A stretch of 64,000 nucleotides of DNA from NCBI GenBank assembly GCA_037144045.1, contig JBAWXN010000001.1, positions 1,387-65,386 of the forward strand, written 5' to 3'. Within the stretch, counting starts at the first letter, position 1; each line of letters begins with the position of its first letter. A program made the position numbers and the translations under genes. Below the pieces are notes generated by a model, which was not told the DNA's origin, ran no database searches, and saw only the letters and a program-made list of their open reading frames with translations. Positions 3,280-21,464 of this stretch are shown here, in pieces. Source of the DNA: a bacterium. GTDB lineage: Bacteria > Patescibacteriota > Minisyncoccia > Phycocordibacterales > UBA1006.

Positions 3280-3283
3280 TTCT

Positions 3284-4006: not shown

Positions 4007-4010
4007 TCAT

Positions 4011-4331: not shown

Positions 4332-4340
4332 TGGTTCAAA

Positions 4341-4364
4341 AAACACCCGCGCGGGTGTTTTTTG
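4341..4364 (+). terminator. intrinsic terminator inside the r-protein cluster (cacccgcgcgggtg + TTTTTT)
   Basis: Perfect GC-rich palindrome 4344-4357 followed by a T6 tract, immediately after the rplW stop. Confidence 0.7.
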
Positions 4365-4382
4365 TTGAGAAAAAATTTAATA

Positions 4383-4802
4383 ATGGCTGCTAGTATGGTC
4401 TCCATGGAATTCCTATTTAAGAAATTTAAAACCTGGTTTCTTCTTAAAGAAAAACTTCATGCTATACACGCAAAGCCGCCTTATTTTAACGAGTCGGATA
4501 TTTGGTGGTGTAGTATGGGTGAAAATATTGGCGTTGAGGTTAATGGAAAGAGTGAGCTTTTTTCAAGACCAGTACTTGTTTTAAGAAAGTTGTCACGAGA
4601 ATCTTTTTTAGGTATTCCTTTAACATCTCAAGAAAAGAAGGGTACTTGGTACGTTCCCATTACTCAAGGAAAAAGTGTTTCCTATGCGTTGTTAAATCAA
4701 GTACGATTACTTTCTACCAAACGTCTTTCTTCCAAGATGGGAAGCCTTGATGAAATAGATTTTAATAAAGTAAAATCAGGTTTTATAGACCTGATTTTGT
4801 AA
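4383..4802 (+). CDS. MazF/PemK-family (CcdB/MazF fold) endoribonuclease toxin-like protein with an N-terminal extension of about 35 aa
   Basis: SDIWWCSMGENIGVEVNGKSELFSRPVLVL aligns to MazF/EndoA GD(L/V)(I/Y)W(V/F)D..P..G.E..G.RP(A/V)(L/V)V(L/I). ALLNQVRLLSTKRL aligns to ILLEQIRTIDKQRL of B. subtilis EndoA. First ATG is 4383; the ORF-track start 4362 is a TTG inside the terminator T-tract. Confidence 0.6.
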   Translation: MAASMVSMEFLFKKFKTWFLLKEKLHAIHAKPPYFNESDIWWCSMGENIGVEVNGKSELFSRPVLVLRKLSRESFLGIPLTSQEKKGTWYVPITQGKSVSYALLNQVRLLSTKRLSSKMGSLDEIDFNKVKSGFIDLIL

Positions 4803-4932
4803 TATTTCCACTACTTGAGTGGACCGCGGGAAATCCCCGAAAGTAATTTAATTATAACCATGACGCTCCTAGTGTCAACATGGTACATTACTTACTTTAT
4901 TAAAAGTTTAGAAATAGCTGATTCAGTATTAG

Positions 4933-4960
4933 TTGACAAAAACCCTTAATTTGCTATAGT
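4933..4960 (+). promoter_or_regulatory. sigma70-like promoter (TTGACA -16- TATAGT) upstream of rplB
   Basis: consensus -35 TTGACA 4933-4938, 16-nt spacer, -10 TATAGT 4955-4960, about 150 nt upstream of the rplB ATG. Confidence 0.45.
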
Positions 4961-5045
4961 TTCCCAGTCACAGATCATCTTTTTACAGTGGTTGTTGGGA
5001 CAGAGACTTAGGCAATCTCATATTAAAAACTATCTTACCGGAAAG

Positions 5046-5096
5046 CCTTATCGGTAATTGAGTCCGACAAAGACGGACGAAGATCCGCCGATAAGG
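5046..5096 (+). promoter_or_regulatory. conserved-looking stem-loop in the rplB 5' leader (ccttatcgg ... ccgataagg with an inner gtccg/cggac hairpin)
   Basis: Perfect 9-bp inverted repeat 5046-5054 / 5088-5096 enclosing a second 5-bp hairpin, ends 13 nt before the rplB ATG. Candidate autoregulatory r-protein leader or processing site. Confidence 0.35.
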
Positions 5097-5109
5097 CGGA
5101 TGGACACAT

Positions 5110-5958
5110 ATGAAACACTATAAACCAACATCAAAGTCACGACGAATGATGTCAGTAGTAACTTACAAAGGAGTTATTACTACTAACGAACCTCACAAGG
5201 CGTTAACATTCGGACGTGCAAAACATGCAGGACGTAACAATCGAGGGATTGTTACCGTTCCCCACCAAGGAGGAGGAAACAAAAATCTTTACCGAATGGT
5301 GGACTTCAAATTTAACAAGAAAAACATCCCTGCTAAAGTTGAAACGATTGAATACGATCCAAACCGAACTGCATTCATCGCTCTTATTTGTTACCGTGAC
5401 GGTGAACGACGCTACATGCTCGTTCCTGCAACGGTTGCAGTAGGTGATGTTATTACTGTAGCAGCTGACGCACCATTGAAACCAGGAAACCGGTTACCAT
5501 TGCGATCAATTCCAGTAGGAACATTTATTTACAACATTGAATTGTATCCAGAAGCAGGTGCTAAATTAGTACGTTCAGCTGGAAACTTTGCTCAAGTACA
5601 AGGTCACGATAACGGAAAAGTTCAAATTAAATTACCTTCAGGTGAAATTCGAACCGTTTCTGACACGTGTTGGGCATCAGTGGGAACCGTATCAAACGGT
5701 GAACACCAATTAGTAAACCGAGGTAAAGCTGGTAAGTCACGATGGCTTGGAATTCGTCCAACCGTTCGTGGTACTGCTATGAACCCAGTAGACCACCCAC
5801 ACGGAGGAGGGGAAGGAGTTCAAGGAATTGGACTTCGCCGAGGACCAAAAACTCGACACGGGAAACAAGCGTACGGTGTTAAAACACGACGACCAAAGAA
5901 ATACTCAAATTACGCTATTATCACTCGTCGCAAGACGAAGCGAAATACGCCAAAATAA
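5110..5958 (+). CDS. rplB: 50S ribosomal protein L2
   Basis: MKHYKPTSKSRR...TFGRAKHAGRNNRG...PHGGGEG L2 signature. Confidence 0.95.
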   Translation: MKHYKPTSKSRRMMSVVTYKGVITTNEPHKALTFGRAKHAGRNNRGIVTVPHQGGGNKNLYRMVDFKFNKKNIPAKVETIEYDPNRTAFIALICYRDGERRYMLVPATVAVGDVITVAADAPLKPGNRLPLRSIPVGTFIYNIELYPEAGAKLVRSAGNFAQVQGHDNGKVQIKLPSGEIRTVSDTCWASVGTVSNGEHQLVNRGKAGKSRWLGIRPTVRGTAMNPVDHPHGGGEGVQGIGLRRGPKTRHGKQAYGVKTRRPKKYSNYAIITRRKTKRNTPK

Positions 5959-5975
5959 TTTGGTATTCACAAATC

Positions 5976-5996
5976 ATCCCTACGGGGATTTTTTGT
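5976..5996 (+). terminator. intrinsic terminator after rplB (atccc-tacg-gggat + T-run)
   Basis: hairpin followed by TTTTTTG. Confidence 0.6.
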
Positions 5997-6011
5997 TGGA
6001 AAAAATATGTA

Positions 6012-6038
6012 ATAAAAAACCACCCTATTACAGGTGGC
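6012..6038 (-). terminator. intrinsic terminator for the convergent minus-strand gene (ccacc-tattacag-ggtgg, A-run on plus = T-run on minus)
   Basis: hairpin 6020-6037 preceded on the plus strand by AAAAAA. Confidence 0.5.
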
Positions 6039-6063
6039 TCAAGACCGCGAGATCCTTGATTAA

Positions 6064-7665
6064 TTATGTAGTTTTTTTAGTTCTGAGCACAAACGTAAGT
6101 GATACATACCGTTTGCCTACAGGTAGCCCTGTTTTGGCAACAGTAGTAACTTCTTGTGCAGTGGCTAATGCTTTATCACCTAAACGAGTACTAATATACG
6201 TTGCTCGGTTCAATGCTAAGTCCTCATTTTTTGCATAAGGAAGGACATCTGCAGTGCCGGTAACAATAATACTAAACCGCATCGGCATTTGAGCTGATAT
6301 GTCACTTAATTCTTCACTTACTACGTTGCTGCAGTAATAGAAAAAATTAGCAATGGTGGGTATTTCGAATTCACCAACAGGAAACAGTTGTTGAGTGGTA
6401 TCGCACCCGTTAAGTAATACTTCATAAGTAGTATCGTTAATAGCTCGAGCACTTAAACACGTGCCACGAAGTTCTTTCCTGTTACTCAGTTCAACTTCAA
6501 GATTGCGACTCACTGCTTTTTCCAGGGAATAGGCAGTATAGCTTACTTTTTTGCCGTACCGTGGTTTTGGTTGAACCACTACAGTGTCCGATGATTGTAG
6601 CTTTTCAGTAGGGATAACCGATTGAGGAGCAACTGATTTCGGTCGCGCCACTACCTTGGTAAGACCAAGGACACAGCTGTAATATGACTCAAGGTTTGCA
6701 ATCGTCCCTTTGGTAAGACCGAGGTCTTTCAAGTACCCATTCGACTGAAATTTTTCCCCCGCATCCCATAGGTCGAGGAGGTTGATCTTCATTTGGATAT
6801 TCATAGGTGCCTCACCTAATGTTGCTAGTTGCAAGAAACAGAGTTCCTTTACAATATCAGCATTAACATTACCCCATACATTCAATCGTTGCGCATTCGC
6901 CTCCTTAAATATATCAGTATTTCCCGCATTTAATGCAACCAGTACTTTCGTAGCTGGTGCCGCTTCAACGGATTCCGGATGTAATATGAGTTCTTTCGTT
7001 GCGGTGCAGTTGGGAAACTCACTAATCGTTTGTTTCTTGCCACCGCATGTGCAGGTACGCATGTCTTGCTTGTGGTAGTAACAATTCACTTGTTCCTGCC
7101 AAAGCGCCATGTAACCTTGTGCTTTTAAGCTGTCTTGGTCCCATGTATTCAATGAATTATACAAACGCATAATGTGTTCATAATGATCTTGAATACGCAC
7201 ATTTTCGGAATAGAATAATTCGCCCTGGATCTTCACCGTATAGTAATAGATTTGTCCCAGGACGTTAGTTGGTGGAACTGCTTTCACATTCATCTCTATT
7301 TCATCAATAGTAATACCTTTACCAATATCAGTAGTAAAAGAAAACAGACTAATATGCTTTTCAGCAGCTGTTTGCTCATACCAAGCACCAATGCCGGGGA
7401 ACACTTCTTCAAGTTTCTTTTTCATATTCGGGCACAATGCCTCGTATTTCCAGATTTGTTTCTGGATGGTTGGGTTTTTGCCGGCTTCGAAAGTAATTTT
7501 CTCCGCAGCGAATTTTTCTTGTGCGGAAATTGATCCAAGTTTCTGTAACGCAGCGTACTTACCGCTGGCGTCCTTCTTGGAAAGATAAATAGCGCGTACA
7601 TTTTGCGCATACGTGGTTGCAATGCTTATAGTGCATAGCAAGAGAATAAGCCCTAATTTTTTCAT
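6064..7665 (-). CDS. secreted Cys-rich hypothetical protein (signal peptide) with a possible degenerate OmpA-like C-terminal motif
   Basis: N-terminal MKKLGLILLLCTISIATTYA signal peptide; many Cys (CTCGGKK, PNCTATKE). C-terminal IVTGTADVLPYAKNEDLALNRATYISTRLGD resembles the OmpA_C core (GHTD..G....N..LS..RA..V..YL). No other recognisable domain. Confidence 0.55.
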   Translation of the reverse strand: MKKLGLILLLCTISIATTYAQNVRAIYLSKKDASGKYAALQKLGSISAQEKFAAEKITFEAGKNPTIQKQIWKYEALCPNMKKKLEEVFPGIGAWYEQTAAEKHISLFSFTTDIGKGITIDEIEMNVKAVPPTNVLGQIYYYTVKIQGELFYSENVRIQDHYEHIMRLYNSLNTWDQDSLKAQGYMALWQEQVNCYYHKQDMRTCTCGGKKQTISEFPNCTATKELILHPESVEAAPATKVLVALNAGNTDIFKEANAQRLNVWGNVNADIVKELCFLQLATLGEAPMNIQMKINLLDLWDAGEKFQSNGYLKDLGLTKGTIANLESYYSCVLGLTKVVARPKSVAPQSVIPTEKLQSSDTVVVQPKPRYGKKVSYTAYSLEKAVSRNLEVELSNRKELRGTCLSARAINDTTYEVLLNGCDTTQQLFPVGEFEIPTIANFFYYCSNVVSEELSDISAQMPMRFSIIVTGTADVLPYAKNEDLALNRATYISTRLGDKALATAQEVTTVAKTGLPVGKRYVSLTFVLRTKKTT

Positions 7666-7790
7666 TCTTAAGTTTTAAATGTTTGGTAATATAATTCTTA
7701 ATCATAATAACAGACTTATTAAAAAAGTCAAGTGAGTACAGGGTCTTTTAGAACGAGATTAACTATAGGTCGCATTTCCCAAGGAACCCC

Positions 7791-7819
7791 TTGACAAAAA
7801 AACTTAAAAATGCTTTAAT
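7791..7819 (+). promoter_or_regulatory. candidate promoter (TTGACA -17- TTTAAT) for the flotillin-like gene
   Basis: consensus -35 with a weak -10, about 190 nt upstream of the ATG at 8009 in the divergent intergenic region. Confidence 0.3.
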
Positions 7820-8008
7820 AGCCCGGAATGGTTCGTTGAACACTCGTGATTTTCTGTGCCTTATAGGTACACAAACTCACCGAACATGATTTACCGCTTG
7901 CTTTAGCAAGGTTCATCACTCAGGTAATCAGAGCTGATCACTCTTAGAAAATGGTCTGGTATCATTGCACCAGAAGCAATAAATCTTCAAAACATCAATT
8001 AATTTTAG

Positions 8009-10387
8009 ATGATAGCAACAATTTTGAGCTTCATAGCTCATTTCATAATACCTTTGGCGATACTCGCACTGGTATTGTTTGTATTGTATAACTCCGTAAC
8101 TATTGCCGGTGGTGATGAAATTATTACCCTGGAAAGAAAGTATTTCGGAAAACACATGCCAGATGGTAGAACCGTAGCGCTTAGTGATGAGGTAGGTATG
8201 CAGGCCCGTGTTTTAGGACCAGGAGTGCATTGGCTTATTCCATTTATTTATTCTACAAAGAAACACAAGTTTTTGGTTATACCTAAGAACAAGGTGGGAG
8301 TAGTAAGAGCGATTACCGGTGCGCCAATTCCTTCAGGCTCGTTTATGGCGAAAGCGGTAGACTGTGACCTGTTTCAGGATGGTGAAAAGTTCCTTAAAAA
8401 TGGCGGTGAAAAAGGTGCTCAGTTGGCTATTTTGCCGGAAGGTGAATACAAAATCAACCCGCACTTATTTCAGGTCGTTGAAGAGGATGCTATCCTGGTA
8501 GAAGACAATGAAGTAGCGGTGATTGAATCTATTGCCGGTCAGCAAGTAAAACGCTCAGGTGGTAACTTTGGTTCCCCTGTAGAATGCGATAACTTCCAAA
8601 ACGCACAAATGTTCTTGGAAAATGGCGGTCAGAAGGGTCCACAGATAGCATTCCTTACGCCTGGTATTTATCGTATTAATACTATTTTGTTCTCGGTAGT
8701 TAAGAAACCAATTACGGTTATTCCGGGTGGTATGATGGGGCTTGTAGAAGCAACGGACGGTGCCCAAATTTCGGCTGGTCGACTTCTTGCAAAAGAGGTA
8801 GATGGCCATAACAACTTCTTCGATGGCGAGGCATTTATTAAAAATGGCGGTGAAAAAGGTAGACAACTTCAGGTGTTAAAACCAGGAACTTACCGTTTGA
8901 ATCCACTATTGTTCCGCGTTGTGGAGAAGGTTGAATGGACACACATTGATTCGAACCAGGTTGGTATCGTTACGGTAAACGAAGGTGAGCCGGTAAAAGG
9001 TGAAGCTATTGCTGCCGATAAGGTGCCATTAGCTGACCATAATAGTTACCAAGATCCTGCAAAATACCTTGCGGTAAAAGGCCAAAAAGGTTTGCAGCAA
9101 GAAGTGCTTCGTGCTGGTAACTACATCATAAACCCATGGTTTGCGAGCGTAGAAAAAACACCAATGACGGAAATTCTGATTGGTACTTGTGGTGTTGTAA
9201 CAAGTTTCGTAGGAGAAGAAGGTGAGGATTTAACTAAAGACGACAAGAACGTTAACGCGAAAATTGTTGCAAATGGTAAGAAGGGTATATGGACAGAACC
9301 ATTAAGCCCGGGCTTGCATCCGATTAATACTCGTGTGTGCAAGATTACTATTGTACCTACCACACAAATTTTGTTGAGCTGGGCGGATGATACCTCCAGT
9401 GCACACAAGTTTGATGAAGGTTTGAAAACAATTGAACTACTTACCGCTGATGCATTCAAAGTAAACATGGATGTGCGTGTGATCATTCACATTGCCATGG
9501 CTGATGCTTCAAAAGTGGTAGCGAACCTGGGTTCGGTGCAGAACATGATTGCGCAAGTTCTTGAGCCTGCTATTTCTTCGCATTTCCGTAACGCAGCGCA
9601 AAAAGTCCAAGCATTGAAATTGCTTGACGAGCGTAGCGAATTACAGGAAGCTGCTAAGATACATATTCAGGGAATTTTGAAATCGCATAACATCGAGTCG
9701 AAAGACACTATGATTGCAGCGATAGTATTACCTCCGGCATTGACCAAAACAGTAACTGATCGTCAGTTGGCTGAACAGGAGAAGAAAACCTACCAAACTC
9801 AAAAAGAGGCTCAATTTGAAAAACGAGAACTGGAAAACGCAACAGCTCAAGCAAATGCTCAGGCTGACGTTGTGAAATCTGAGCGTGATGTTGAAATTCA
9901 AAAGAACATCGCGGCTGGTAAGGTAGAAGCTGCAACTGGTGCGAAAGAAGCGGCAGTATTGGATGCTACCGGTAAGGCAGAAGCGAGAAAACTTTCGGCA
10001 ACTGCTGAGGCAGAAGCTGTAAAGGTTACTGCGAATGCGAATGCTGAGGCTACCAAGGTGAATGCAATTGCAGATGCTGAGGCTAAGGAGAAAGTAGGTC
10101 TTGCAGAAGCGAAGGTTATCCTTGAAAAGGGTAAATCTACTGCAGAGGCTTACAAGCTGGAAGTAGGTGCGATGGGACAAGAAAACTTCGGTAGAATTAA
10201 TGCTCTGAAAGAGATTAAGGATCTGAAGTTGAAACTGGTTCCTGATGTGCTTATTGTGGGCGGTGGCGAAGGCGGTGGCTCTATTGATAATTTCATGAAG
10301 TTAAACCTGCTTGAAAAAGTAACTGGTAAAGACTTCTTGGAGTTAGCAAAACCTGCTGGCGACACAACTGAAGCCCCAAAGGCCTAA
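8009..10387 (+). CDS. flotillin/YqiK-like SPFH-domain membrane protein with five tandem N-terminal repeats and a C-terminal Ala/Glu-rich flotillin domain
   Basis: N-terminal TM helix. Five repeats of the unit F.DGE.FLKNGGEKG.QL..L.PG.Y.INP.LF.VV. SPFH core (KVNMDVRVIIHIAMAD...) aligns to E. coli YqiK. EA-rich coiled-coil repeats (AEAEAVKVTANANAEATKVNAIADAEAKEK) are typical of flotillins. Confidence 0.75.
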   Translation: MIATILSFIAHFIIPLAILALVLFVLYNSVTIAGGDEIITLERKYFGKHMPDGRTVALSDEVGMQARVLGPGVHWLIPFIYSTKKHKFLVIPKNKVGVVRAITGAPIPSGSFMAKAVDCDLFQDGEKFLKNGGEKGAQLAILPEGEYKINPHLFQVVEEDAILVEDNEVAVIESIAGQQVKRSGGNFGSPVECDNFQNAQMFLENGGQKGPQIAFLTPGIYRINTILFSVVKKPITVIPGGMMGLVEATDGAQISAGRLLAKEVDGHNNFFDGEAFIKNGGEKGRQLQVLKPGTYRLNPLLFRVVEKVEWTHIDSNQVGIVTVNEGEPVKGEAIAADKVPLADHNSYQDPAKYLAVKGQKGLQQEVLRAGNYIINPWFASVEKTPMTEILIGTCGVVTSFVGEEGEDLTKDDKNVNAKIVANGKKGIWTEPLSPGLHPINTRVCKITIVPTTQILLSWADDTSSAHKFDEGLKTIELLTADAFKVNMDVRVIIHIAMADASKVVANLGSVQNMIAQVLEPAISSHFRNAAQKVQALKLLDERSELQEAAKIHIQGILKSHNIESKDTMIAAIVLPPALTKTVTDRQLAEQEKKTYQTQKEAQFEKRELENATAQANAQADVVKSERDVEIQKNIAAGKVEAATGAKEAAVLDATGKAEARKLSATAEAEAVKVTANANAEATKVNAIADAEAKEKVGLAEAKVILEKGKSTAEAYKLEVGAMGQENFGRINALKEIKDLKLKLVPDVLIVGGGEGGGSIDNFMKLNLLEKVTGKDFLELAKPAGDTTEAPKA

Positions 10388-10420
10388 GTTAATAATTGAA
10401 TACTAGTGCTCACGCACGGA

Positions 10421-10452
10421 CCCGTTCCAATTTGGAACGGGTTTTTTATTTT
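10421..10452 (+). terminator. intrinsic terminator after the flotillin-like gene (cccgttcc-aattt-ggaacggg + T-run)
   Basis: 8-bp stem then TTTTTTATTTT. Confidence 0.65.
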
Positions 10453-10460
10453 ATAACATG

Positions 10461-10496
10461 CAAAAAATAAACCCTGTCGCAATGACAGGGTTTTTG
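10461..10496. terminator. bidirectional intrinsic terminator (A-run, ccctgtc-gcaat-gacaggg, T-run)
   Basis: 7-bp stem flanked by AAAAAATAA upstream and TTTTT downstream; serves the convergent minus-strand gene ending at 10507. Confidence 0.6.
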
Positions 10497-10506
10497 GGTA
10501 ATTAAA

Positions 10507-12303
10507 TTATGACCAGAACATATACCAAGGCTTAGGATAGAATGATGCAAGTTTTGTTACTACTTTTGCCCACTCAGTACTTCTTCTTGGAAATAATTCA
10601 AGTAACGCCTCACATGGTTGTGGTTGACGCGCATTGGATAATTCCGATTCAAGTAATGTGCAGGCACGTTTGTAACATAGAACAGCATATTCTGATTCTG
10701 GAGGAAATAAGTACATTTGCTTCATTGCTACAGCTACAGTGCTGTATTTTGAAATTTTATGTTTTGTTTCCTCGTCTTGTAGGCGTAATTCGTTCATTTG
10801 CTTATTACGTAACCGTTCTTCCTCTGCGGGGTCGGTTGCTGGAGCTTCTTCTGTTACTACAAGAGGAGCAATGACTACAGGTTGAACCGCTGCTGGGGTA
10901 GATTGAGTTACTTTCGGTCCAAAGCGTTGTGCGAGGCGATACATGGCGAACGAGGCGTCTCTGATGCGGTAATCGCGCGCGTCACTTTCATTAGTGAATA
11001 ACTCAACTAAACGCAAATCAAGAAGGTCTTCTTCAGTGCTTGGTGAGTCTACATAATTTTCAAAGCCGGTAAGCTCCTTCACTGATCGTGCGCGTGACTG
11101 TTCTTCTTTTAATAGTCGAGACAGTTTTGTTTGTGCAAGGTTGCCAATGTAGGTATCGGTATCAACCAGGTTATGAAGGTCATCCTTGGTTTGTATAAGG
11201 TTAACAATCCGTTCGGTAACCTGCTTTTTTAACGGATCGCCAAATTCAAGGTCCTCAAGGTGATTTTCAAGTTCAGATACATCAGTAGTTTTTTCCAGAT
11301 ACTGTGCAAGTAGTATGTGTTCACGCTTAGCAGCCATTCTGCCTATACGTGAATCGCTGCTGAATGATTCCTGGATACTACCCAAAACTTCAATAACAGT
11401 ATCAGTAAATGCATTGCACTGATTAATAGCGCCTTGGGCAAGTACTTCTTGAGCTTCAGAGCCGTCATTGAACGAATCGTGATGTTCCCAAATTTTTTCA
11501 GGATCACGTCCGCACAATTGTACGATCTGTTGAGCCAAGTAAACATTTGAATCGTCCTCTGAATCAATGAAGTCATCCAAATCGTTCACATCGTTCAGGG
11601 AACGAATATTATTGATGGCTCGTTGAACCAGTTCACGATGTTTATTCTGTACCAAGTAATATTCCAAACTGTCTTCCGAAAACACATCATTAATCAATTC
11701 GTGGGTTTCTGAAGGGGAAGTGCACGTATTAATAAGCTTCTGTGCCAAATACTGCATTGATTCCTTACGGTATGCATCGTTTTGATATAATGAAACAAGG
11801 TCATCAAAGTCCTTAGTTTCGTTAATAATGCGTTGCTCAAGGGTTTTAATCTTTGCAAAAATTGCTAACTCTTCAGCACTACCGTCAGGAGTGTATTTAT
11901 TTAACTCCTCCAAATCGTCTAAATCATCAGTCGCAGAGAGCTTTTGAGCAATAATACGTACTAATTTTTCATACGCAATGATAAATTCACCATCGGTGTA
12001 GTCGAGTTGTTCAAGGATTCCATAAAGTTCCTCAGGATCCTCCGTGTCTGCAATTTCTTGCAACGTGGTGACCCCTGGTTCTTCCTCCCATTCAGGACCT
12101 TTGTAGTGATTTTTGGGTTCTACTACCGTAGACGGCATATTTTTAGTACCTTGTTGCAGTTGGTCAAAGATAGTTACTGGTTTATCAGTTAAAAAGTAGG
12201 GTCGTTGGGACTGATAGGTCCCATCGAGTATCTTTTTCAGTTCAGACACGGAAATACCGGTATCTTCTGAAAGTTTACGTAAATGAACGTCTTTACTGGT
12301 CAT
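10507..12303 (-). CDS. hypothetical protein with an N-terminal helix-turn-helix-like segment followed by about five acidic 35-aa repeats
   Basis: N-terminal LRKLSEDTGISVSELKKIL is HTH-like. Repeats share D(L/F)DDL..L......AQKL(I/S) / YLAQ(K/Q)(L/I)(I/V) spacing; very acidic. No database family recognisable from sequence alone. Confidence 0.5.
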   Translation of the reverse strand: MTSKDVHLRKLSEDTGISVSELKKILDGTYQSQRPYFLTDKPVTIFDQLQQGTKNMPSTVVEPKNHYKGPEWEEEPGVTTLQEIADTEDPEELYGILEQLDYTDGEFIIAYEKLVRIIAQKLSATDDLDDLEELNKYTPDGSAEELAIFAKIKTLEQRIINETKDFDDLVSLYQNDAYRKESMQYLAQKLINTCTSPSETHELINDVFSEDSLEYYLVQNKHRELVQRAINNIRSLNDVNDLDDFIDSEDDSNVYLAQQIVQLCGRDPEKIWEHHDSFNDGSEAQEVLAQGAINQCNAFTDTVIEVLGSIQESFSSDSRIGRMAAKREHILLAQYLEKTTDVSELENHLEDLEFGDPLKKQVTERIVNLIQTKDDLHNLVDTDTYIGNLAQTKLSRLLKEEQSRARSVKELTGFENYVDSPSTEEDLLDLRLVELFTNESDARDYRIRDASFAMYRLAQRFGPKVTQSTPAAVQPVVIAPLVVTEEAPATDPAEEERLRNKQMNELRLQDEETKHKISKYSTVAVAMKQMYLFPPESEYAVLCYKRACTLLESELSNARQPQPCEALLELFPRRSTEWAKVVTKLASFYPKPWYMFWS

Positions 12304-12438
12304 AATGTAAGTATGTTGTTTTTGGTGTACGAAATGGTTATTACTGTAGCATTGATTGATTGTTTTGTCAAAAAATAGTGTTTTGAATTTACTAGAGTGA
12401 AATAAGTTAAAATTTGCAGGGGAGTGTATGGTTTTTTA

Positions 12439-12467
12439 TTGACATATAAGGATTTTCTTGCTATATT
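12439..12467 (+). promoter_or_regulatory. near-consensus sigma70-like promoter (TTGACA -17- TATATT) restarting transcription of rpsS to rplE
   Basis: -35 TTGACA 12439-12444, 17-nt spacer, -10 TATATT 12462-12467, followed by a leader of about 150 nt containing an inverted repeat gtatctcg/cgagatac. Confidence 0.55.
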
Positions 12468-12967: not shown

Positions 12968-12970
12968 TAT

Positions 12971-13342: not shown

Positions 13343-13344
13343 TT

Positions 13345-14016: not shown

Positions 14017-14022
14017 ACCTTT

Positions 14023-14448
14023 ATGTTATTTCCAAAAAAAGTAAAACACCGAAAATGGCAAACTGATCGACGAAATCCTAACAAGAAAATTGTTGCGACT
14101 CGTGGAACAGAACTCCAATTCGGATCATTTGGACTTCGCGCACTTTCAAGTGAACGAGTTAAATCAAATCAAATCGAAGCTGCTCGTAAAGTAGTTTCGC
14201 GAACTCTTGGTAAAACAGGAAAATATTGGATTCGTATCTTCCCAGATCGACCTATTACAGCAAAAGCTGCTGAAGTAGGTATGGGTAAGGGTAAGGGGGA
14301 TCCACAAGGATTCTGTTTCGAAGTAGAACCAGGTCGAATCATTTTCGAAGTTGATGGAGTACCTGATGCAGTAGCAAAAGAAGCACTCCGCAAAGCTGGT
14401 TGTAAGCTTCCTATCAAAGTTCGTATTATCAGTCGCAACGACATGTAA
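14023..14448 (+). CDS. rplP: 50S ribosomal protein L16
   Basis: MLFPKKVKHRKWQ...RLEAARKV...EVEPGRIIFEV L16 signature. Confidence 0.93.
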   Translation: MLFPKKVKHRKWQTDRRNPNKKIVATRGTELQFGSFGLRALSSERVKSNQIEAARKVVSRTLGKTGKYWIRIFPDRPITAKAAEVGMGKGKGDPQGFCFEVEPGRIIFEVDGVPDAVAKEALRKAGCKLPIKVRIISRNDM

Positions 14449-14451
14449 TGT

Positions 14452-14712
14452 ATGAAAAAAACAGTAACTACAGAAACACAAGTAAATAAGAAAACATTAC
14501 AGGGTGTTGTTGTGTCAGATAAGATGCAAAAAACATTGGTAGTGAATGTGCAACGTTTCGTTAAAGATGCTAAGTACGGTAAGTACATGAAAATCTCTAA
14601 GAAATACAAAGCGCATTACGAAGGTTCAGATATCAAAATTGGTGACAAAGTTACCATTGTTGAATGTCGCCCACGGTCGAAAGATAAACACTTTGAAGTA
14701 ACATCAATCTAA
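14452..14712 (+). CDS. rpsQ: 30S ribosomal protein S17 (directly follows rplP; no rpmC between them)
   Basis: [33 protein letters not shown]...[20 protein letters not shown]. Confidence 0.92.
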
Positions 14713-14716
14713 TTAT

Positions 14717-15085
14717 ATGATTCAAGTAGGAACAAATGTTACCATCGCTGATAACACCGGAGCTAAAAAAGCTCGCGTGTTTAAGGTATTAGGTGGTTCA
14801 AAACGACGCTATGCGAGTTTAGGTGATGTGGTTATTCTTTCGATTAAATCAGCAGAACCTCGTAAAGCGGTTAAGAAAAAAGGAGTTCACAAAGCTGTGA
14901 TTGTTCGTCAAAAAATGGCGTACCGACGTAAAGACGGTTCGTACATTCGATTTGATGACAACGCGGTAGTGATTCTTGAAAAAGGACAAGAACCAAAAGG
15001 AGGTCGAATCTTCGGTCCTATTCCCCGAGAACTCGGAGAAAAAGGTTATCAGAAAATCGTATCACTTGCCCCAGAGGTATTGTAA
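14717..15085 (+). CDS. rplN: 50S ribosomal protein L14
   Basis: [27 protein letters not shown]. Confidence 0.93.
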
Positions 15086-15090
15086 GCTTT

Positions 15091-15306
15091 ATGATTAAAA
15101 AAGGAGACAATGTTGTGGTGATTGCTGGATCTGACAAAGGAAAGAAGGGAACTGTGGTTAAAGCACTTCCTAAGACTTCCCAAGTTGTGATTGAAGGCAT
15201 CAACATAAAGAAAAAGCATCAGAAAGCGAAAACTACTGATGGTGTTGGAAAAGTGATTGAAGTAGCTAAGCCGGTTCACGTGTCAAACGTGAAGTTGGCG
15301 AAATAA
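15091..15306 (+). CDS. rplX: 50S ribosomal protein L24 (short, KOW domain only, 71 aa)
   Basis: MIKKGDNVVVIAGSDKGKKGTVVKAL...VIEGINIKKKH KOW motif; lacks the usual C-terminal 30 aa or so. Confidence 0.88.
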   Translation: MIKKGDNVVVIAGSDKGKKGTVVKALPKTSQVVIEGINIKKKHQKAKTTDGVGKVIEVAKPVHVSNVKLAK

Positions 15307-15313
15307 TACGCAT

Positions 15314-15895
15314 ATGGAAACACTGAAACAAAAACAAGCAAGTGCCTATGATGTACTGAAAGCTCAATTCGGATACACTAATAAATTGGCAGCGCCTCGC
15401 ATCGAAAAAGTAGTAGTATCAGTTGGTACTGGTTCTGGAATGAAACGAGATCGCAACAAGAATGACTTCGTTATTGATCGTTTAACAAAAATTGTGGGTC
15501 AAAAGCCTTCAGTAAAATCTGCTAAACAATCAATTGCATCATTCAAAATTCGTCAAGGTGATCCAGTTGGAGTGGTAGTTACCCTTCGTGGTGAACGTAT
15601 GTGGTCATTCTTGGATAAATTGGTAAACGTGGCATTGCCTCGAACTAAGGACTTCCGAGGAATCACACGATCATCTGCGGGTGATCTTGGTAACATGACT
15701 ATCGGTATTCGTGAACATACGATCTTCCCAGAAACATCTGATGAAGAAATTTCACAAGTATTTGGTCTTGCTATCACTATCGTGACTACGGCAACTTCTC
15801 GACCAGAAGGTCTCGCATTCTTTGAATATCTTGGATTCCCTCTTAAGAAGGAAGACGAGAAAAAAGCAAAGCGAACTCGAAAACGAGGAAAATAA
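15314..15895 (+). CDS. rplE: 50S ribosomal protein L5
   Basis: LKQKQASAYDVLKAQFGYTN...PRIEKVVVSVG...FRGITRSSAGDLGNMTIGIREHTIFPE. Confidence 0.93.
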   Translation: METLKQKQASAYDVLKAQFGYTNKLAAPRIEKVVVSVGTGSGMKRDRNKNDFVIDRLTKIVGQKPSVKSAKQSIASFKIRQGDPVGVVVTLRGERMWSFLDKLVNVALPRTKDFRGITRSSAGDLGNMTIGIREHTIFPETSDEEISQVFGLAITIVTTATSRPEGLAFFEYLGFPLKKEDEKKAKRTRKRGK

Positions 15896-15902
15896 CAAAT
15901 TG

Positions 15903-15923
15903 CTACCGAAAGGTAGTTTTTTG
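15903..15923 (+). terminator. intrinsic terminator directly after rplE (ctacc-gaaa-ggtag + TTTTTT)
   Basis: tetraloop hairpin plus T6; ends the r-protein transcript before the rest of the spc genes would normally follow. Confidence 0.7.
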
Positions 15924-15952
15924 TTTTGGTAAATTTACGATATACTAGACTC

Positions 15953-18900
15953 ATGAAATTTTTTATACGAATCCTAATACTAGGAATGTTCTTTGTAACT
16001 GCTCACACTGCTTTTGCAGCTACTATTACCGTAAATACAACAACTCCTGGAATAGTAAGTGATGGAGAGTGTTCATTGTCAGAAGCGATTAATAACGTCA
16101 ATGGCAACAATGATACTTCAGGGGGAGATTGTGCATCCGGAGAAGCTCTCCCTGTTGTTGATCGTATCGAATTTGCAATTCCTGGTGCCGGTCCACACAC
16201 CATAGCAACCAATGCCCAGTTTGGGATTATGGAGGCTGTAGTTATTGATGGAACAACACAGCTAGGTACTGCGTGTCCTCTCGAAGGAGGACTGCGTCAG
16301 CTTCAGATTAACATTGACGGAGGGGGTATTTCTTCTTCGTCTAATATTTTTGATATTCCTCCTGGAGCAAACAACGTAACTATTAAGGGGTTAGCAATTT
16401 ATGGAAACGTATTTGGATCAGGTATTACTACGCAAGCAAACAATACTACGGTTCAATGTACAAACATCGGAACTGATAGTGATGGTTTAGTCGCGCATCC
16501 TAACTTGTATGGAATCAGTATTTATAATAACGGATTAGTGGCTACCTCTGGACATATATTTGGTGGTCCCAATCCGGGAGATGGAAATCTTGTCTCAGGT
16601 AATAACGTGACCAATTCAGGTAGTTTTTTTGACGGTACGGGTATTACTTGTTCGGCAAGTAATGTTTTGATTCAGGGAAACTGGATTGGAATTGATAGTA
16701 CGGGTCAGTCAATTCTAGCAAACAAAAATACAGGTATTCAGTGTGGTAATTCTGGTTCAGAGTTGATTACTTACGAGAATATTCAGATTCTCGACAATGT
16801 TATTTCTGGTAATGGAACAACGGGTGGTCAAAGTTTTTCTCCAGGTATTAATATTGGAGGTGCTGAAATTGGGGGAACCAACGAATTAATTACTAATTTG
16901 GTAATTAAAAGAAATATCATAGGTCTATCTGCTGATGGTTTGACTGCTATTCCCAATGAAGGCGATGGAATTTTTGTAGGAACTACTTCTTCTGCAGTGA
17001 CTATTGGTGGAATTGGTGATGGAAATATTCTTTCAGGGAACGGGGGGAACGGTTTAACATTGGGGTATGATGTTTCAAATATTCAGGTGCTAGGAAACAC
17101 TATCGGATTAAATGCTTTGGGTCTGGCCGCTATTCCTAATAGCCTGCAAGGTATTAGTTTTTCCCCACCCCTCTTTGTGGGTGGTGGTACTGTAACCAAT
17201 GTTACTATTGGAGGAACAAATATCGGAGAGGGAAATACGATTTCTTGCAACAACTCTGGCGGTATCAATATTCCTGCAAATACTAGTAATATCTCTATTA
17301 TCGGGAATACAATTGGTCCCAATAGTAGCGGACAGAATTGCGATACAGGATTACAAAGCGTTGGAATTTATGCTACTGGTACAACCAATCTTACTATTGA
17401 CGCTAACATAATTAAATATCGGTATCTAGCAATACGGATGTATGCACTTGGTGGTTCGTCCGCGATAAAAAATAATACTATTACAGACAACAATACGGGT
17501 ATTTCAATTGTTTCTTCTTCAACAGTCAATCCCATGGTGAGTGTTACGGGAAATAGTATTACAAATAATACTAATATGGGTATTGATCTTTCAATAGATG
17601 CGGACGACAATGGTGTCGGCGACAATATAGGAATTCAAAATACAAATGATATCAATGACACGGACAGTGGGCCAAATAATTATTTAAATCATCCTGTTGT
17701 TCTCATGACGTTACAAAATGGGGCAGATACGAGCGTCTTGTATGGGCTTGATGTCCCCGTGGGATACTATCGGGTAGAATTTTTCATCAACCCAACCAAC
17801 GGAGTAGATGCATCCGGATATGGAGAAGGAGAAGTATATAAAGGATTTTCAGTTATTACGAAATCAGCTTTGGGTTTTGAAACCTATAGCAAGATATTAA
17901 CGAATACAAATCTGAATGATGGTGTAACGGCGACAGTTACCGAATGTACTGATGCGTCTTGTACGAACTATATTGGCACTTCAGAATTTTCAAACACTGC
18001 ACCTCCAGGAGTTGACTACGATGCAACTGATTATACAGCGTCACACGTACTTAATACGGTTTACTTGGGTGCCTGTGTAAACGGTGATAATGGATCAAGT
18101 AGTAATACTGATGCCGATGGTCCCAATCAGGCTGGTGCGTATTTGGGTACGGGGCCGTGTATTGATGACCGAGATGGTGTAGTATTTGGTAGTTCGACTT
18201 CTGGTGGTATTACCCCAGCGTCAATATCTGGAGTCACTCTGTTTTCACAAGGTGGTGATTTTAGTGGAGCACTCAATGATATGACAGTTTCAGGAACATA
18301 TACGGGTGCGGATCATGTGAATGTGTTAGTTTTGATATTCTCTGTTTCTCCTGGGAATTCAGACGATGCAGATTATTTCCTTCCAGTGTTTAACATAGGA
18401 AGTGACTATTTAACTGGTTCTCCTACTAAAATTACTCCAGGAATTCCACAATCAATTGGATCAGGCGTATCTATCATGTTTCAAAATGGTACTGGTCACA
18501 CAGCATTTGATACTGGCTCAGGCACAGGTCCAGTTTTAGTTTTTAGTGCTAATAGTGAGAGCGAAGCATTTACTTTTACTCAAAATACGGGAACATTTCT
18601 TCCTGGAGCTACTACTGCTGTCCAAACTACCGCATCAGCAAATGGATATGTACATGTATGGTTAGATAGTAACAACGATGGCGATTTTCTAGACACGGGG
18701 GAACAGGTTGTTGAGAGTACTATCATAACTTCTGGAGAACATATTGTTAATTTTACTGCACCGATCCAGGCGGGAACCTATCCTGTACGGGTGCGGTATA
18801 CTTCATATGAAGATACCAATCTTGGTCCGACAGGACTTGCAAATGATGGTGAAGTAGAAGATTATCAACTTACGGTAGCTGTCCCGGTTTCTACTGCAGG

Positions 18901-19312
18901 AGGGTCTACGGGGTATCTTCCAAGGCTTGCATTTAAACCGGTTACAGTGCCGGCAGGTGTTTCATCAAATAATTCAGCAGAAGATATTTTGGGTTCAGGT
19001 ATCTGTTCAACAGAGCTTATTATTAAAGATCTTATGAAACAAGGAGATAGAAATGGTAAATATGGTGCTTATAATAAAAAAACAGTGAAAGACGTGAACC
19101 TTCTTCAAGTTCATATTAATCGAATACTTGCCGCCCAATACAACCAGGCAGCAGGTCCAACGGATGGAATTTTTGGAAAACTCACTAAGCGCGGGGTGGA
19201 ACGGTTGCAAACTGCACTCAATAGTTTCCTAAAGCCAGCACCAAAACTGAAAATAGATGGTGTTGTGGGTCCTTTTACTCGAGATGCGATTAATAATAGT
19301 TGTGGTAAATAA
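15953..19312 (+). CDS. giant secreted right-handed parallel beta-helix repeat protein with a GEVED domain and a C-terminal PG_binding_1-type peptidoglycan-binding domain
   Basis: Signal peptide MKFFIRILILGMFFVTAHTAFA. About 20 PbH1-like repeats (N..I.GN.IG.....G). ...DGEVEDYQLTV (GEVED motif). C-terminal LLQVHINRILAAQYNQAAGPTDGIFGKLTKRGVERLQ...IDGVVGPFTRDAIN resembles PG_binding_1. Confidence 0.7.
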   Translation: MKFFIRILILGMFFVTAHTAFAATITVNTTTPGIVSDGECSLSEAINNVNGNNDTSGGDCASGEALPVVDRIEFAIPGAGPHTIATNAQFGIMEAVVIDGTTQLGTACPLEGGLRQLQINIDGGGISSSSNIFDIPPGANNVTIKGLAIYGNVFGSGITTQANNTTVQCTNIGTDSDGLVAHPNLYGISIYNNGLVATSGHIFGGPNPGDGNLVSGNNVTNSGSFFDGTGITCSASNVLIQGNWIGIDSTGQSILANKNTGIQCGNSGSELITYENIQILDNVISGNGTTGGQSFSPGINIGGAEIGGTNELITNLVIKRNIIGLSADGLTAIPNEGDGIFVGTTSSAVTIGGIGDGNILSGNGGNGLTLGYDVSNIQVLGNTIGLNALGLAAIPNSLQGISFSPPLFVGGGTVTNVTIGGTNIGEGNTISCNNSGGINIPANTSNISIIGNTIGPNSSGQNCDTGLQSVGIYATGTTNLTIDANIIKYRYLAIRMYALGGSSAIKNNTITDNNTGISIVSSSTVNPMVSVTGNSITNNTNMGIDLSIDADDNGVGDNIGIQNTNDINDTDSGPNNYLNHPVVLMTLQNGADTSVLYGLDVPVGYYRVEFFINPTNGVDASGYGEGEVYKGFSVITKSALGFETYSKILTNTNLNDGVTATVTECTDASCTNYIGTSEFSNTAPPGVDYDATDYTASHVLNTVYLGACVNGDNGSSSNTDADGPNQAGAYLGTGPCIDDRDGVVFGSSTSGGITPASISGVTLFSQGGDFSGALNDMTVSGTYTGADHVNVLVLIFSVSPGNSDDADYFLPVFNIGSDYLTGSPTKITPGIPQSIGSGVSIMFQNGTGHTAFDTGSGTGPVLVFSANSESEAFTFTQNTGTFLPGATTAVQTTASANGYVHVWLDSNNDGDFLDTGEQVVESTIITSGEHIVNFTAPIQAGTYPVRVRYTSYEDTNLGPTGLANDGEVEDYQLTVAVPVSTAGGSTGYLPRLAFKPVTVPAGVSSNNSAEDILGSGICSTELIIKDLMKQGDRNGKYGAYNKKTVKDVNLLQVHINRILAAQYNQAAGPTDGIFGKLTKRGVERLQTALNSFLKPAPKLKIDGVVGPFTRDAINNSCGK

Positions 19313-19313
19313 A

Positions 19314-19333
19314 AAGCACCTACGGGTGTTTTT
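19314..19333 (+). terminator. intrinsic terminator (gcacc-tac-gggtg + TTTTTT)
   Basis: short GC hairpin plus T6 after the stop at 19312. Confidence 0.55.
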
Positions 19334-19392
19334 TGACTTACAGGAACGATTTTAGGTATAATAATCCTGTTTATCAAGATAACTAAAAAAAT

Positions 19393-20394
19393 ATGAAAGA
19401 AGCAATATCACTCGGTTCTGGTGCAGGAAACGAACAATTTAAACATACTCAAGACGGCAAAAAGTATTTATACGAAAAAGATGGTACTTTTTATGGAGGT
19501 GATTATATGGACGAACCACCGCAAGAACTTTTTATCGATGTTGGTTCGGCACCAGCAAGCCCTGCAAAATCATATCGCGAAATTGGTGCAGCTAACCGTG
19601 CAGCATTTAATGAAAAAATCGAGAAGAAAAAAACTTGGTTGAGTGGACTGTTTTCACGGTTTGGATCTAAAGTTAAAGATACTAAAGAATCAGCAATAGA
19701 TCATGCTTTTGCAACACGCCAGATGGCAGCTGATGGATATGAAGCAGTAGACAAGGGGATTCAAAAGATGGAAGACAAGATTGTATTTGGAAGTGAGGTT
19801 GCAGGTCGCGCAGCAGAACTTGCGGGTGCGTATGCAGCATACAAGGCCAAGGAAGGAATGGCTTCAGCTAACAAATTCATTGATAATCGTATTGTGAATC
19901 CTATTGATGCAAAAGTGCAAAAATTAGATGCGTACGTTGATAAAAAATGGGAACAAGGAAAAAACTATGCAGAACTTAAAAAACAACAAGGAGCTGCATG
20001 GATGAAAGACAAGGCGGAAACAGCTGCTGCAGTAGGAATTATTGGAGGATACATTGCAAAAGGGGTTGCAGGATCAATTAAAGAAGGATTCACTCAAAAA
20101 GTTGCAGAAGCGAAAGAAAAAGTTTCTCAAGGATATGAAAATGTTCTGGGAATGGGAGCTGCTGCTATTGCATCTGCTGAACAAAAACGAAAATCGTTGA
20201 TTTCTGGAGCGCGCGATAAATGGAACCAGATTCAACTCGGTTTCCTTAATCGACAACTTGCTAATGAACGAGCAAAAGCAGAAATGGCTCGAGAAGAACT
20301 CGAATCACGAGAAGCTAAAGCAAAGCTTATTGAACAAAAAATGGCACTTCTTAATACAGACTTCGTGGGGAATGCTCAGGAAGCAACTGCATAA
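19393..20394 (+). CDS. hypothetical Ala/Lys-rich helical protein
   Basis: long ORF with periodic A/K/E composition (apolipoprotein/LEA-like helices), no TM helices, no recognisable motif. Confidence 0.45.
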   Translation: MKEAISLGSGAGNEQFKHTQDGKKYLYEKDGTFYGGDYMDEPPQELFIDVGSAPASPAKSYREIGAANRAAFNEKIEKKKTWLSGLFSRFGSKVKDTKESAIDHAFATRQMAADGYEAVDKGIQKMEDKIVFGSEVAGRAAELAGAYAAYKAKEGMASANKFIDNRIVNPIDAKVQKLDAYVDKKWEQGKNYAELKKQQGAAWMKDKAETAAAVGIIGGYIAKGVAGSIKEGFTQKVAEAKEKVSQGYENVLGMGAAAIASAEQKRKSLISGARDKWNQIQLGFLNRQLANERAKAEMAREELESREAKAKLIEQKMALLNTDFVGNAQEATA

Positions 20395-20399
20395 TATAT

Positions 20400-20774
20400 A
20401 TGACAATACAAGAACTCATTCAAAAAATTACAGACAGTGTCCTTTCAGAAAGTGCTAAAAAGCAGATTATTGACCTTGCGGGTACTTATTCTGAAGTAAC
20501 TCCTGACCTTGAAGACCAGGTAAAAGCACTTATTCAAGAAGATATTGATCGCGACTTGGCTGCGCTTGGAGCTGACGAAAACAGTCCTGAAATTCAGGCA
20601 GTCCAAGCAGAACTCGAAGCTGGTTTGGCTGAAGTTGATGCTGAACTTGATCAAGATATGACCTATGTAGACCAAGAACTTAAAGAGCTTGATGCTATGC
20701 GCCTTGAAATTACTCGAGCCGAAGAAGCGCTTAAAATTGAACAATTACGGAATGATTTGACCGCTGGGTCATAA
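20400..20774 (+). CDS. hypothetical acidic coiled-coil protein
   Basis: 124 aa, very acidic, starts 6 nt after the upstream stop (likely co-transcribed). Confidence 0.4.
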   Translation: MTIQELIQKITDSVLSESAKKQIIDLAGTYSEVTPDLEDQVKALIQEDIDRDLAALGADENSPEIQAVQAELEAGLAEVDAELDQDMTYVDQELKELDAMRLEITRAEEALKIEQLRNDLTAGS

Positions 20775-20783
20775 TTCACCAAA

Positions 20784-20807
20784 AACCTCCTTGAAAAGAG
20801 GTTTTTG
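20784..20807 (+). terminator. intrinsic terminator (aacctc-cttgaaaag-gaggtt + TTTTT)
   Basis: 6-bp stem plus T5. Confidence 0.55.
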
Positions 20808-20819
20808 TGTAGGAAATAC

Positions 20820-20848
20820 TTGCCTTTTTTAGGAAAATAAGGTATGGT
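20820..20848 (+). promoter_or_regulatory. candidate promoter (TTGCCT -17- TATGGT) for rpsL-rpsG
   Basis: -35/-10-like hexamers with 17-nt spacing, about 185 nt upstream of rpsL. Confidence 0.3.
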
Positions 20849-21033
20849 GGTACGGTCTTTATATGGTAACTGTGGTTAATCCATGGATCATATGCTGGAC
20901 GATTTGAGGGGTATTGCTCCAAAAAATCAGTTTATACGCAACGAATAGTACTGAGGTGAGTACAAAAGGTAGTTTTAATTACTTATCCTTTATTCTCCAT
21001 CTCGTGTTCTCATTCACTAACTAATTAATATTA

Positions 21034-21453: not shown

Positions 21454-21464
21454 GCTGAAAATAT

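Follow-up and report, generated by a model that had tools for sequence, protein, structure and literature searches.

Probable lineage-level reorganisation of the str-S10-spc ribosomal protein supercluster in a Paceibacteria-like clade

Introduction

Synteny of the S10-spc block of ribosomal protein (r-protein) genes is regarded as near-universal, and the 16-ribosomal-protein marker sets on which phylogeny and the binning of candidate phyla radiation (CPR) genomes draw are based on this block. A stretch of 64,000 nucleotides from the bacterial contig JBAWXN010000001.1 (GenBank assembly GCA_037144045.1, positions 1,387 to 65,386 of the forward strand), hereafter called the window, carries this block in pieces, with accessory genes between them, and raises the question of whether an intact operon was recently broken in this one genome or whether a whole lineage has departed from the usual layout. 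An earlier reading of the window without database searches (the original prediction) had laid stress on local insertions and had called accessory genes within such a locus rare. Comparison with relatives leads us to consider a lineage-level reorganisation of the str-S10-spc supercluster in a Paceibacteria-like CPR clade the likely answer, the islands being genome-specific fillings of old, fixed gaps.

Results

In the window, the normally unbroken r-protein cluster consists of five self-contained transcription units (Table 1). Open reading frame (ORF) listing and Pfam searches agree on every gene call and confirm the predicted gene order throughout, with matches to tuf, S10, L3, L4, L23, L2, S19, L22, S3, L16, S17, L14, L24, L5, S12, S7 and EF-G, and no other r-protein was found by Pfam among the remaining ORFs. 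The predicted split into separate transcription units is upheld as well, since sequence scans recover terminators and new promoters at the junctions concerned, the promoters being consensus matches that are conserved in relatives. The highest-scoring promoter-like sites fall just where units must begin, namely before rplB, rpsS and a 333-aa gene, while the sites before rpsL and fusA have the form TTGC(A/C)(A/T)-17-TA(N)(A/G)GT. Because the total of promoter-like matches in the window shows no excess over the shuffled expectation, the argument from promoters draws on their position and their conservation in relatives. Transcription from the promoters of rplB, rpsS, rpsL and fusA would start at about 4967, 12474, 20855 and 22003, respectively. 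The window's arrangement exceeds chance. Canonically, L23, L2 and S19 are contiguous with spacers under about 150 bp; here the two spacers measure 779 bp (L23/L2) and 6659 bp (L2/S19). In about 110 non-CPR loci retrieved with the same L2 query, the spacer between L2 and S19 reaches at most 401 bp and is mostly below 60 bp. Canonical S12-S7-fusA-tuf upstream of S10 is also missing, and S12-S7-fusA follow L5 instead.

The top L2 matches in GTDB species genomes and Joint Genome Institute (JGI) metagenomes were metagenome-assembled genomes of Paceibacterota, Kaiserbacteria and Zambryskiibacteria at 57–64% identity; these matches, the type IV pilus cluster and the absent or shortened r-proteins all fit a CPR/Patescibacteria genome of the Paceibacteria type. 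The L2 scans returned nothing closer than 64%; closer relatives were recovered solely via an S3 protein search. They form the window's own clade (loci L161, L163, L165, L168, L185–L189 and L192, with L167 and L169 spanning the region only partly), whose r-proteins are 85–98% identical to those of the window and whose contigs, among them ones of 746 kb, 128 kb and 53 kb, come from independent Logan, European Nucleotide Archive (ENA) and JGI assemblies of different samples. Two further classes lie at greater depth, a sister group (L170–L173; S3 70–76% identical) and distant Paceibacteria (S3 about 50–57% identical). For spacer lengths, a set of 18 Paceibacteria-like loci with L2 at least 56% identical was used.

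All clade members spanning the region share one backbone, tuf-S10-L3-L4-L23 / L2 / S19...L5 (without L29) / S12-S7 / fusA, followed by SIMPL and S74-domain genes. L167 and L169 agree with it over the stretches that they cover. The backbone is common to at least seven species-level relatives from independent assemblies, and in none of them does S14-SecY follow L5. Because every covering clade member has the window's backbone, the rearrangement is inherited and not chimeric. An assembly or binning chimera would have nothing in its favour except the unusual layout; the composition is uniform, and the same four junction types (L23/L2, L2/S19, L5/S12 and S7/fusA) recur in contigs from different projects and assemblers, so that we give this explanation practically no credence and agree with the original prediction that the layout is no assembly artefact. 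That prediction had also allowed for an ancestral layout shared by all close relatives, with the missing spc genes immediately downstream of fusA: the shared layout was found, but the spc genes do not lie downstream of fusA in the relatives either.

The same comparison bears on the explanation that recent local insertions broke an intact S10-spc operon here, the inserts having brought or created the terminators and promoters. The genome-specific gap contents would fit it, as would a compact, self-contained cassette with a MazF-like gene, present at the L23/L2 site in only two of seven lineages. The backbone already contradicts it, since the breakpoints and the relocation of str are common to all relatives: the str genes after rplE and the lack of S14-SecY and L29 are clade-wide features, and the claim that local insertions broke this genome's operon was not sustained. 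Moreover, the L23/L2 spacer is empty in L165, L168 and L169 (172–223 bp), yet the terminator, the promoter and the rplB leader are all retained, promoter and leader beginning within about 10–30 nt of the rplW terminator; because of this, the breaks are older than the present inserts. The leaders covary across the clade and thus also predate the current inserts, and the S19-L5 block is isolated already in the sister group. Taken together, these observations make recent local insertion very improbable.

In the sister group, S19-L22-S3-L16-S17-L14-L24-L5 stands as an isolated block, without L29 and with a full-length L24; housekeeping genes lie upstream, L2 is 9 kb away in L172, and RuvB and PilB, not S14, follow L5. 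The distant Paceibacteria retain the canonical order S12-S7-fusA-tuf-S10-L3-L4-L23-L2-S19-...-L16-L29-S17-L14-L24-L5-S14-S8-L6-L18-S5-L15-SecY, str preceding S10 in L001, L006, L008, L012 and L015. Even so, accessory genes inside the locus cannot be called rare for the phylum, as L2 and S19 are separated by 0.5–4 kb of additional DNA in 13 of the 18 Paceibacteria-like loci, and several distant Paceibacteria loci have extra DNA also at S10/L3, S7/fusA or fusA/tuf. Contents of the L2/S19 gap in these distant genomes comprise MazE with MazF, a PKD/CARDB surface protein with an IS200-like Y1 transposase, a DAG kinase, DUF5674 and small orphans. The complete MazE-MazF pair lies at 10898–11493 of L005, and the surface protein and transposase at 10941–14735 of L012.

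The absence of the rpsN...secY continuation after rplE, as originally predicted, is borne out by tblastn and Pfam: with queries from four canonical relatives, S14, S8, L6, L18, S5, L15, SecY and L29 gave no tblastn match in the window or in the clade loci. Two related features had gone unmentioned before. First, rpmC (L29) is absent at its locus, where only 3 nt separate the end of rplP (14448) from the start of rpsQ (14452), and it is missing from the rplP-rpsQ site across the whole clade and the sister group. Second, rplX (15091–15306) encodes 71 aa that match positions 4–73 of the 104-position TIGR01079 model; the gene is short in most clade members, and its product has 100–101 aa in L185–L189 and the sister group.

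Within this fixed backbone, the contents of the gaps vary, and comparison of relatives bears out that the gap genes are dispensable and variable. Compared ORF by ORF, all four gaps show near-complete turnover at a fixed site, a feature of genomic islands, and the gap proteins that are shared are 25–66% identical, as against 85–98% for the flanking r-proteins. The L23/L2 gap measures 172–1327 bp in the clade and holds the MazF-like cassette in the window and L192, a 79-aa ORF, HicA and a 179-aa ORF in L163, and a 112-aa minus-strand ORF in L185–L187. The L2/S19 gap has 798 bp at its shortest and exceeds 9.3 kb at its longest; its contents are of at least seven kinds, and only a secreted 533–586-aa family (window, L161 and L168; 30–42% identical) and an AAA-ATPase group (L161 and L167) recur in it. 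The L5/S12 gap (1435 to more than 7964 bp) mixes three small sets, a 333 + 124-aa pair, a 353–399 + 94–98-aa pair and a PLD-family protein. The S7/fusA gap is short in L163 and the window (44–113 bp) and reaches 2332 bp elsewhere; in L168 it contains a MazF-like homologue.

The 533-, 598-, 333- and 124-aa proteins of the window gave no PADLOC, NCBIfam or permissive Pfam matches. The SPFH protein in the L2/S19 gap has 222-bp (74-aa) tandem-like repeats in its N-terminal region (8378–8860; motif NGGEKG...L.PG.Y.INP), ahead of the Band_7 domain; the idea that it is a resident shared with the Band_7 protein of the L167 gap was rejected (23% identity, E 0.027). In the L5/S12 and S7/fusA gaps of L185–L188, strains that are 99.7–99.9% identical, small indels shorten the PLD-family product from 373 to 297 aa and, in L187, a 401-aa product to 233 aa, which hints at decay of gap genes or at assembly error.

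Fixed positions with variable content could also mean that site-specific mobile elements or defence islands home to the ribosomal cluster and use the gaps as targeted landing sites. Toxin genes do recur in them (MazF-like in the window, L192 and L168; HicA in L163 and L166; MazEF in L005), PLD-family proteins occur in L163 and L185–L189, and the L2/S19 gap of L012 has its IS200-like transposase. Yet none of the clade gaps contains an integrase or recombinase, PADLOC finds no defence system, and the window islands, with no integrase by Pfam and no tRNA nearby, showed no flanking direct or inverted repeats and no att-like borders in a repeat search. In GC, GC3 and tetranucleotide composition, the island genes match the remaining window sequence, which speaks for native DNA. 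Furthermore, the stretch from fusA to SIMPL varies among relatives as much as the gaps, so turnover looks general to the spacers between units and not targeted. We therefore regard targeted landing sites as quite unlikely.

A further explanation is hitch-hiking, in which accessory genes would be kept by read-through from leaky terminators of strongly expressed r-protein units. The MazF-like gene starts 39 nt past the rplW terminator and the 1128-aa gene 28 nt past that of rplE, both genes lack a strong promoter of their own, and the gap genes of the relatives are mostly co-directional with the r-protein genes. Against this, the three L2/S19 gap genes of the window each have a promoter and a terminator, and two of them run in the opposite direction; an 11/12 promoter also belongs to the 333-aa gene, and L192 conserves a weak extended -10 promoter that can be read ahead of the MazF-like gene. 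Hitch-hiking is thus possible for the two genes directly behind terminators, and unlikely as an account of the gaps as a whole.

The lineage-level reading gains further support from structured RNA leaders at the new unit starts. In the rpsS leader, a hairpin of 20 bp carries GGA-CCGUUACU-UCC at its apex; this element does not vary, and neither does a single-stranded UCUCACC. Over eight distinct sequences, 13 of the 20 pairs show compensatory changes, 98% of cells are paired and none of 500 column shuffles matches the scores; in register-shifted controls the paired fraction drops to 31–56%. The rplB leader forms two hairpins with the conserved loops CNUAGGCAA and GAAAGCCUUAU; six of its 11 pairs are compensatory over seven sequences, again with none of 500 shuffles matching the scores. 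Loop motifs of the leaders are GGACCGUUACUUCC, GAAAGCCUUAU and UAGGCAA. Covariance models of the rpsS leader (R1) and the rplB leader (R2) find one match per clade locus, at the expected place, and none in the sister group, in distant Paceibacteria or elsewhere in the window. Both leaders are therefore conserved RNAs of the 5' untranslated region (UTR) with a covariation-supported structure, as expected of r-protein leaders. Neither belongs to a described leader family: no Rfam match was obtained at the gathering threshold or at E up to 5, and only tRNAs and noise were returned for the window. The rpsL 5' UTR is also conserved, with at least one covarying hairpin (the first), judged by eye, and is shortened in L161, L163 and L186.

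Two possible similarities of the leader loops were examined. Against E. coli 16S, 23S and 5S rRNA, used in place of the clade's own rRNA, the loops gave weak matches only and no convincing sign of rRNA mimicry. A 16-mer of the rpsS leader loop found in 11 viral contigs is a chance match of about 18 bits in which the loop alone aligns. Downstream of the rpsS leader hairpin and the TTATCGTGCACTGC box (12561–12616 in the window; also L161, L167, L169 and L186), each relative has a different small hairpin, and some of these precede a T-run, which would fit a transcription attenuator.

Because the operon-wide mechanisms of the L4/S10 leader and S8/spc cannot act across the breaks, we infer that the rplB and rpsS leaders may have replaced them with unit-specific, probably autogenous control.

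Among the gap genes, the MazF-like gene between rplW and rplB stands out as a candidate RNA-controlled toxin, judging by the sequence of its 3' antisense region. It encodes a 132-aa protein, an identical copy of which is annotated in NCBI (P0121), and matches PF02452 above the gathering score, as the toxin of a type II MazEF system would. The same cassette lies at the same site in L192 (73% identical), and the site is empty in L165, L168 and L169. An adjacent protein antitoxin, the second component of such systems, was not found: the window has only a 20-aa ORF overlapping the gene start, and no antitoxin ORF occurs upstream on the gene's own strand in L168 or between rplW and rplB in L192, whereas L005 has a true MazE and MazF pair. 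All three copies (window, L192 and L168) have a near-consensus convergent promoter about 50 nt past the stop codon, reading TTGACA-16-TATACT in L192 (region about 1430–1560) and TTGACT-16-TATACT in L168 (region 11498–11625), where the gene lies in a different gap and in opposite orientation. The DNA from promoter to stop codon is more conserved than the MazF-like coding sequence itself, and the hairpin over the last codons shows one compensatory change in L192. MazF-like homologues on Campylobacterota plasmids are also solitary; that of C. jejuni pVir is 35% identical and has a convergent promoter-like site, too. For pVir, experiments have validated CjrA as a type I RNA antitoxin (PMC10470494, PMC7826846), but the homologue could not be verified as CjrA's toxin partner.

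The remainder of the window contains a complete type IV pilus cluster, ligA, gatCA, five tRNAs, gyrA, rnhB, nusB and rnc. Three Peptidase_S74 surface proteins (94–714, 24269–26656 and 26740–28272) flank the cluster; the S74 domain (endosialidase/tail-fibre chaperone) is C-terminal and membrane anchors are N-terminal, and similar proteins follow fusA in relatives. A release-factor gene (52742–53617) encodes 291 aa, with a PCRF match that begins at profile position 85, so that the N-terminal domain is missing. A prfB frameshift at 52421–53617 was considered and rejected, as a terminator divides what are two distinct genes.

Table 1. Features of the fragmented r-protein cluster and its gaps (window coordinates)
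Feature	Position	Strand	Description and basis
Unit 1	749..4365	+	tuf-rpsJ-rplC-rplD-rplW; Pfam, promoter scan, terminator read from sequence
Unit 1 promoter	749-777	+	TTGACT-17-TACGAT
tuf	833/895-2089	+	Pfam
rpsJ	2230-2568	+	Pfam
rplC	2590/2656-3279	+	Pfam
rplD	3233/3314-4006	+	Pfam
rplW	4011-4331	+	Pfam
rplW intrinsic terminator	4340-4365	+	Hairpin and T-run; also picked up as repeat family D2
MazF-like cassette, ~570 bp	4366..4932	+	Inserted exactly between rplW terminator and rplB promoter
PemK/MazF-like gene, 132 aa	4362/4404-4802	+	PF02452, E 1.2e-11, 45.2 bits versus cut-off 23.1
Predicted antisense RNA, ~80 nt	4844..4762	-	Minimum free energy -23.5, z -4.05
Antisense RNA terminal hairpin (predicted)	4772-4798	-	Overlaps last codons of MazF-like gene
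Convergent promoter	4878..4851	-	TTGACA-16-TATAAT, 12/12; -10 element 4851-4856
Unit 2, monocistronic rplB	4933..5995	+	Pfam, promoter scan, leader model
rplB promoter	4933-4960	+	TTGACA-16-TATAGT, 11/12, with TG
rplB leader	4961-5109 (conserved motif 4961-5064)	+	Covariation
rplB	5110-5958	+	Pfam
rplB terminator	5976-5995	+	Intrinsic
Terminator after rplB, opposite strand	6017-6040	-	Predicted from sequence
Variable gap L2/S19	5996..12438	.	Three genes, each with own promoter and terminator
Secreted 533-aa protein	6064-7665	-	Recurs in L161 and L168 at 30–42%
Membrane SPFH/flotillin-like 792-aa protein	8009-10387	+	Pfam; 222-bp internal repeats
Acidic 598-aa protein	10507-12303	-	ORF
Unit 3	12439..15925	+	rpsS-rplV-rpsC-rplP-rpsQ-rplN-rplX-rplE, without rpmC
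rpsS promoter	12439-12467	+	TTGACA-17-TATATT, 11/12, with TG
rpsS leader	12469-12616 (20-bp hairpin motif 12469-12560)	+	Covariation
rpsS...rplE block	12617-15895	+	Pfam
rplE terminator	15902-15925	+	Intrinsic
Variable gap L5/S12 (5.1 kb rplE-rpsL)	15926..20819	+	Three genes
Secreted 1128-aa beta-helix/GEVED/PG-binding protein	15953-19312	+	Pfam; unique to window
Terminator after 1128-aa gene	19303-19335	+	Predicted from sequence
Promoter of 333-aa gene	19333-19362	+	11/12
Coiled-coil pair, 333 aa and 124 aa	19393-20394; 20400-20774	+	Recurs in L168, L169 and partly L161, 26–66% identity
Unit 4	20820..21969	+	rpsL-rpsG
rpsL promoter	20820-20848	+	TTGCCT-17-TATGGT
rpsL leader, ~185 nt	20849-21033	+	Conserved in relatives
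rpsL	21034-21453	+	Pfam
rpsG	21465-21935	+	Pfam
rpsG terminator	21942-21963 and T-run	+	Intrinsic
Unit 5	21968..24253	+	fusA with own promoter and terminator
fusA promoter	21968-21996	+	TTGCAA-17-TACAGT
fusA	22048-24198	+	Pfam
fusA terminator	24234-24247 and T-run	+	Intrinsic

Discussion

Based on the three depth classes of relatives, we propose the following hypothetical history of the cluster, in which (i) the ancestral order would have been the canonical S12-S7-fusA-tuf-S10-L3-L4-L23-L2-S19...L16-L29-S17-L14-L24-L5-S14-S8...; (ii) towards the clade, cuts would have arisen after L23, L2, L5 and S7, while L29 would have vanished from its site, S14-SecY would have gone elsewhere and S12-S7-fusA would have come to follow L5; (iii) each piece would have turned autonomous with a sigma-70-type promoter, a conserved 5' leader and an intrinsic terminator; and (iv) the spacers, freed from co-transcription, would act as ordinary intergenic DNA and gain, lose and swap non-essential, fast-evolving genes such as toxins, secreted and surface proteins, SPFH proteins, PLD proteins and AAA ATPases. 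On this history, each break would have a single origin, that between L2 and S19 being the oldest, followed by the disappearance of L29 and the cut behind L5 and finally by the separation of L23 from L2 and the move of str.

Several points weigh against this scenario. The order of events is drawn from depth classes and not from a resolved phylogeny, and each break may first have been created by an old insertion that part of the lineages have since shed. S14-SecY and rpmC were not located in the clade genomes, which makes "relocated" and, for L29, "lost" indistinguishable. The promoters and terminators are predicted as consensus matches, though conserved in relatives, and each RNA structure is backed by only 7–8 distinct sequences. 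A regulatory role of the leaders is suggested by position and covariation only, and their loops are unlike E. coli rRNA.

A more far-reaching version, which we put forward tentatively and consider possible though somewhat doubtful, is that the break-up forced the clade to evolve cis-regulatory RNAs (the leaders of rplB, rpsS and probably rpsL), each bound by a protein of its own unit and representing undescribed leader classes. According to the same version, the gaps would be nurseries for selfish and surface genes, including a MazF-fold toxin, classically of type II, that would be controlled in type I style by an antisense RNA overlapping its 3' end.

The fragmented cluster implies that co-transcription of these r-protein genes is dispensable once each piece has its own promoter and leader. 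It thereby offers a natural experiment in keeping r-protein stoichiometry after the break-up of an operon, in which the two covariation-supported leaders are directly testable candidates. Two assumptions of marker-contig logic fail here, that all 16 proteins lie on one contig and that foreign genes inside the block mean a chimera. The variable gaps also provide a simple, alignable system for gene turnover in uncultured ultra-small bacteria.

For the MazF-like gene, the closest parallels are type I systems with a 3'-overlapping antisense RNA, such as txpA/RatA and bsrG/SR4 of B. subtilis. It resembles them in the convergent promoter 3' of the toxin gene, in the predicted short, structured antisense RNA over the toxin's 3' end and in the lack of a protein antitoxin. 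In contrast to the small hydrophobic peptide toxins of such systems, the toxin here is a soluble 132-aa protein with a PemK/MazF fold.

Autogenous r-protein leaders are known from E. coli (S10 leader/L4, spc/S8 and str/S7; surveyed in PMC3616713). The leaders described here are likewise structured, conserved 5' UTR RNAs of r-protein units with a narrow phylogenetic distribution. They differ from the known leader RNAs in lacking an Rfam sequence or structure match and in their position before rplB and rpsS, which in other bacteria are genes internal to the S10 operon.

With regard to missing proteins, lineage-specific loss of uL1, bL9, bL28, uL29, uL30, bL32 and bL33 has been reported for CPR bacteria (PMC9297842), and the clade fits this pattern in lacking uL29 where it normally lies and in having shortened r-proteins (uL24 of 71 aa). 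Among the complete genomes of that study, uL29 loss was confined to some Peregrinibacteria, whereas here a Paceibacteria-like clade and its sister group are concerned, and the absence is a locus-level result, in contrast to complete genomes there.

Rearrangements of the supercluster itself have been reconstructed for Gammaproteobacteria and Bacilli, with documented insertions and secondary separation of parts (PMC8046335). We found no paper describing intra-operon S10/spc fragmentation in CPR, a monocistronic rplB or these leaders, although our literature coverage is incomplete and this is not proof of novelty. The known cases involve the same gene families, and their breaks are tied to the insertion of a few genes followed by further separation. 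Most of the examples analysed in detail lie between operons (rpoBC/str and str/S10), whereas the cuts described here lie inside S10 (L23/L2 and L2/S19) and inside spc (after L5), with rplB monocistronic and the gaps hypervariable among close relatives.

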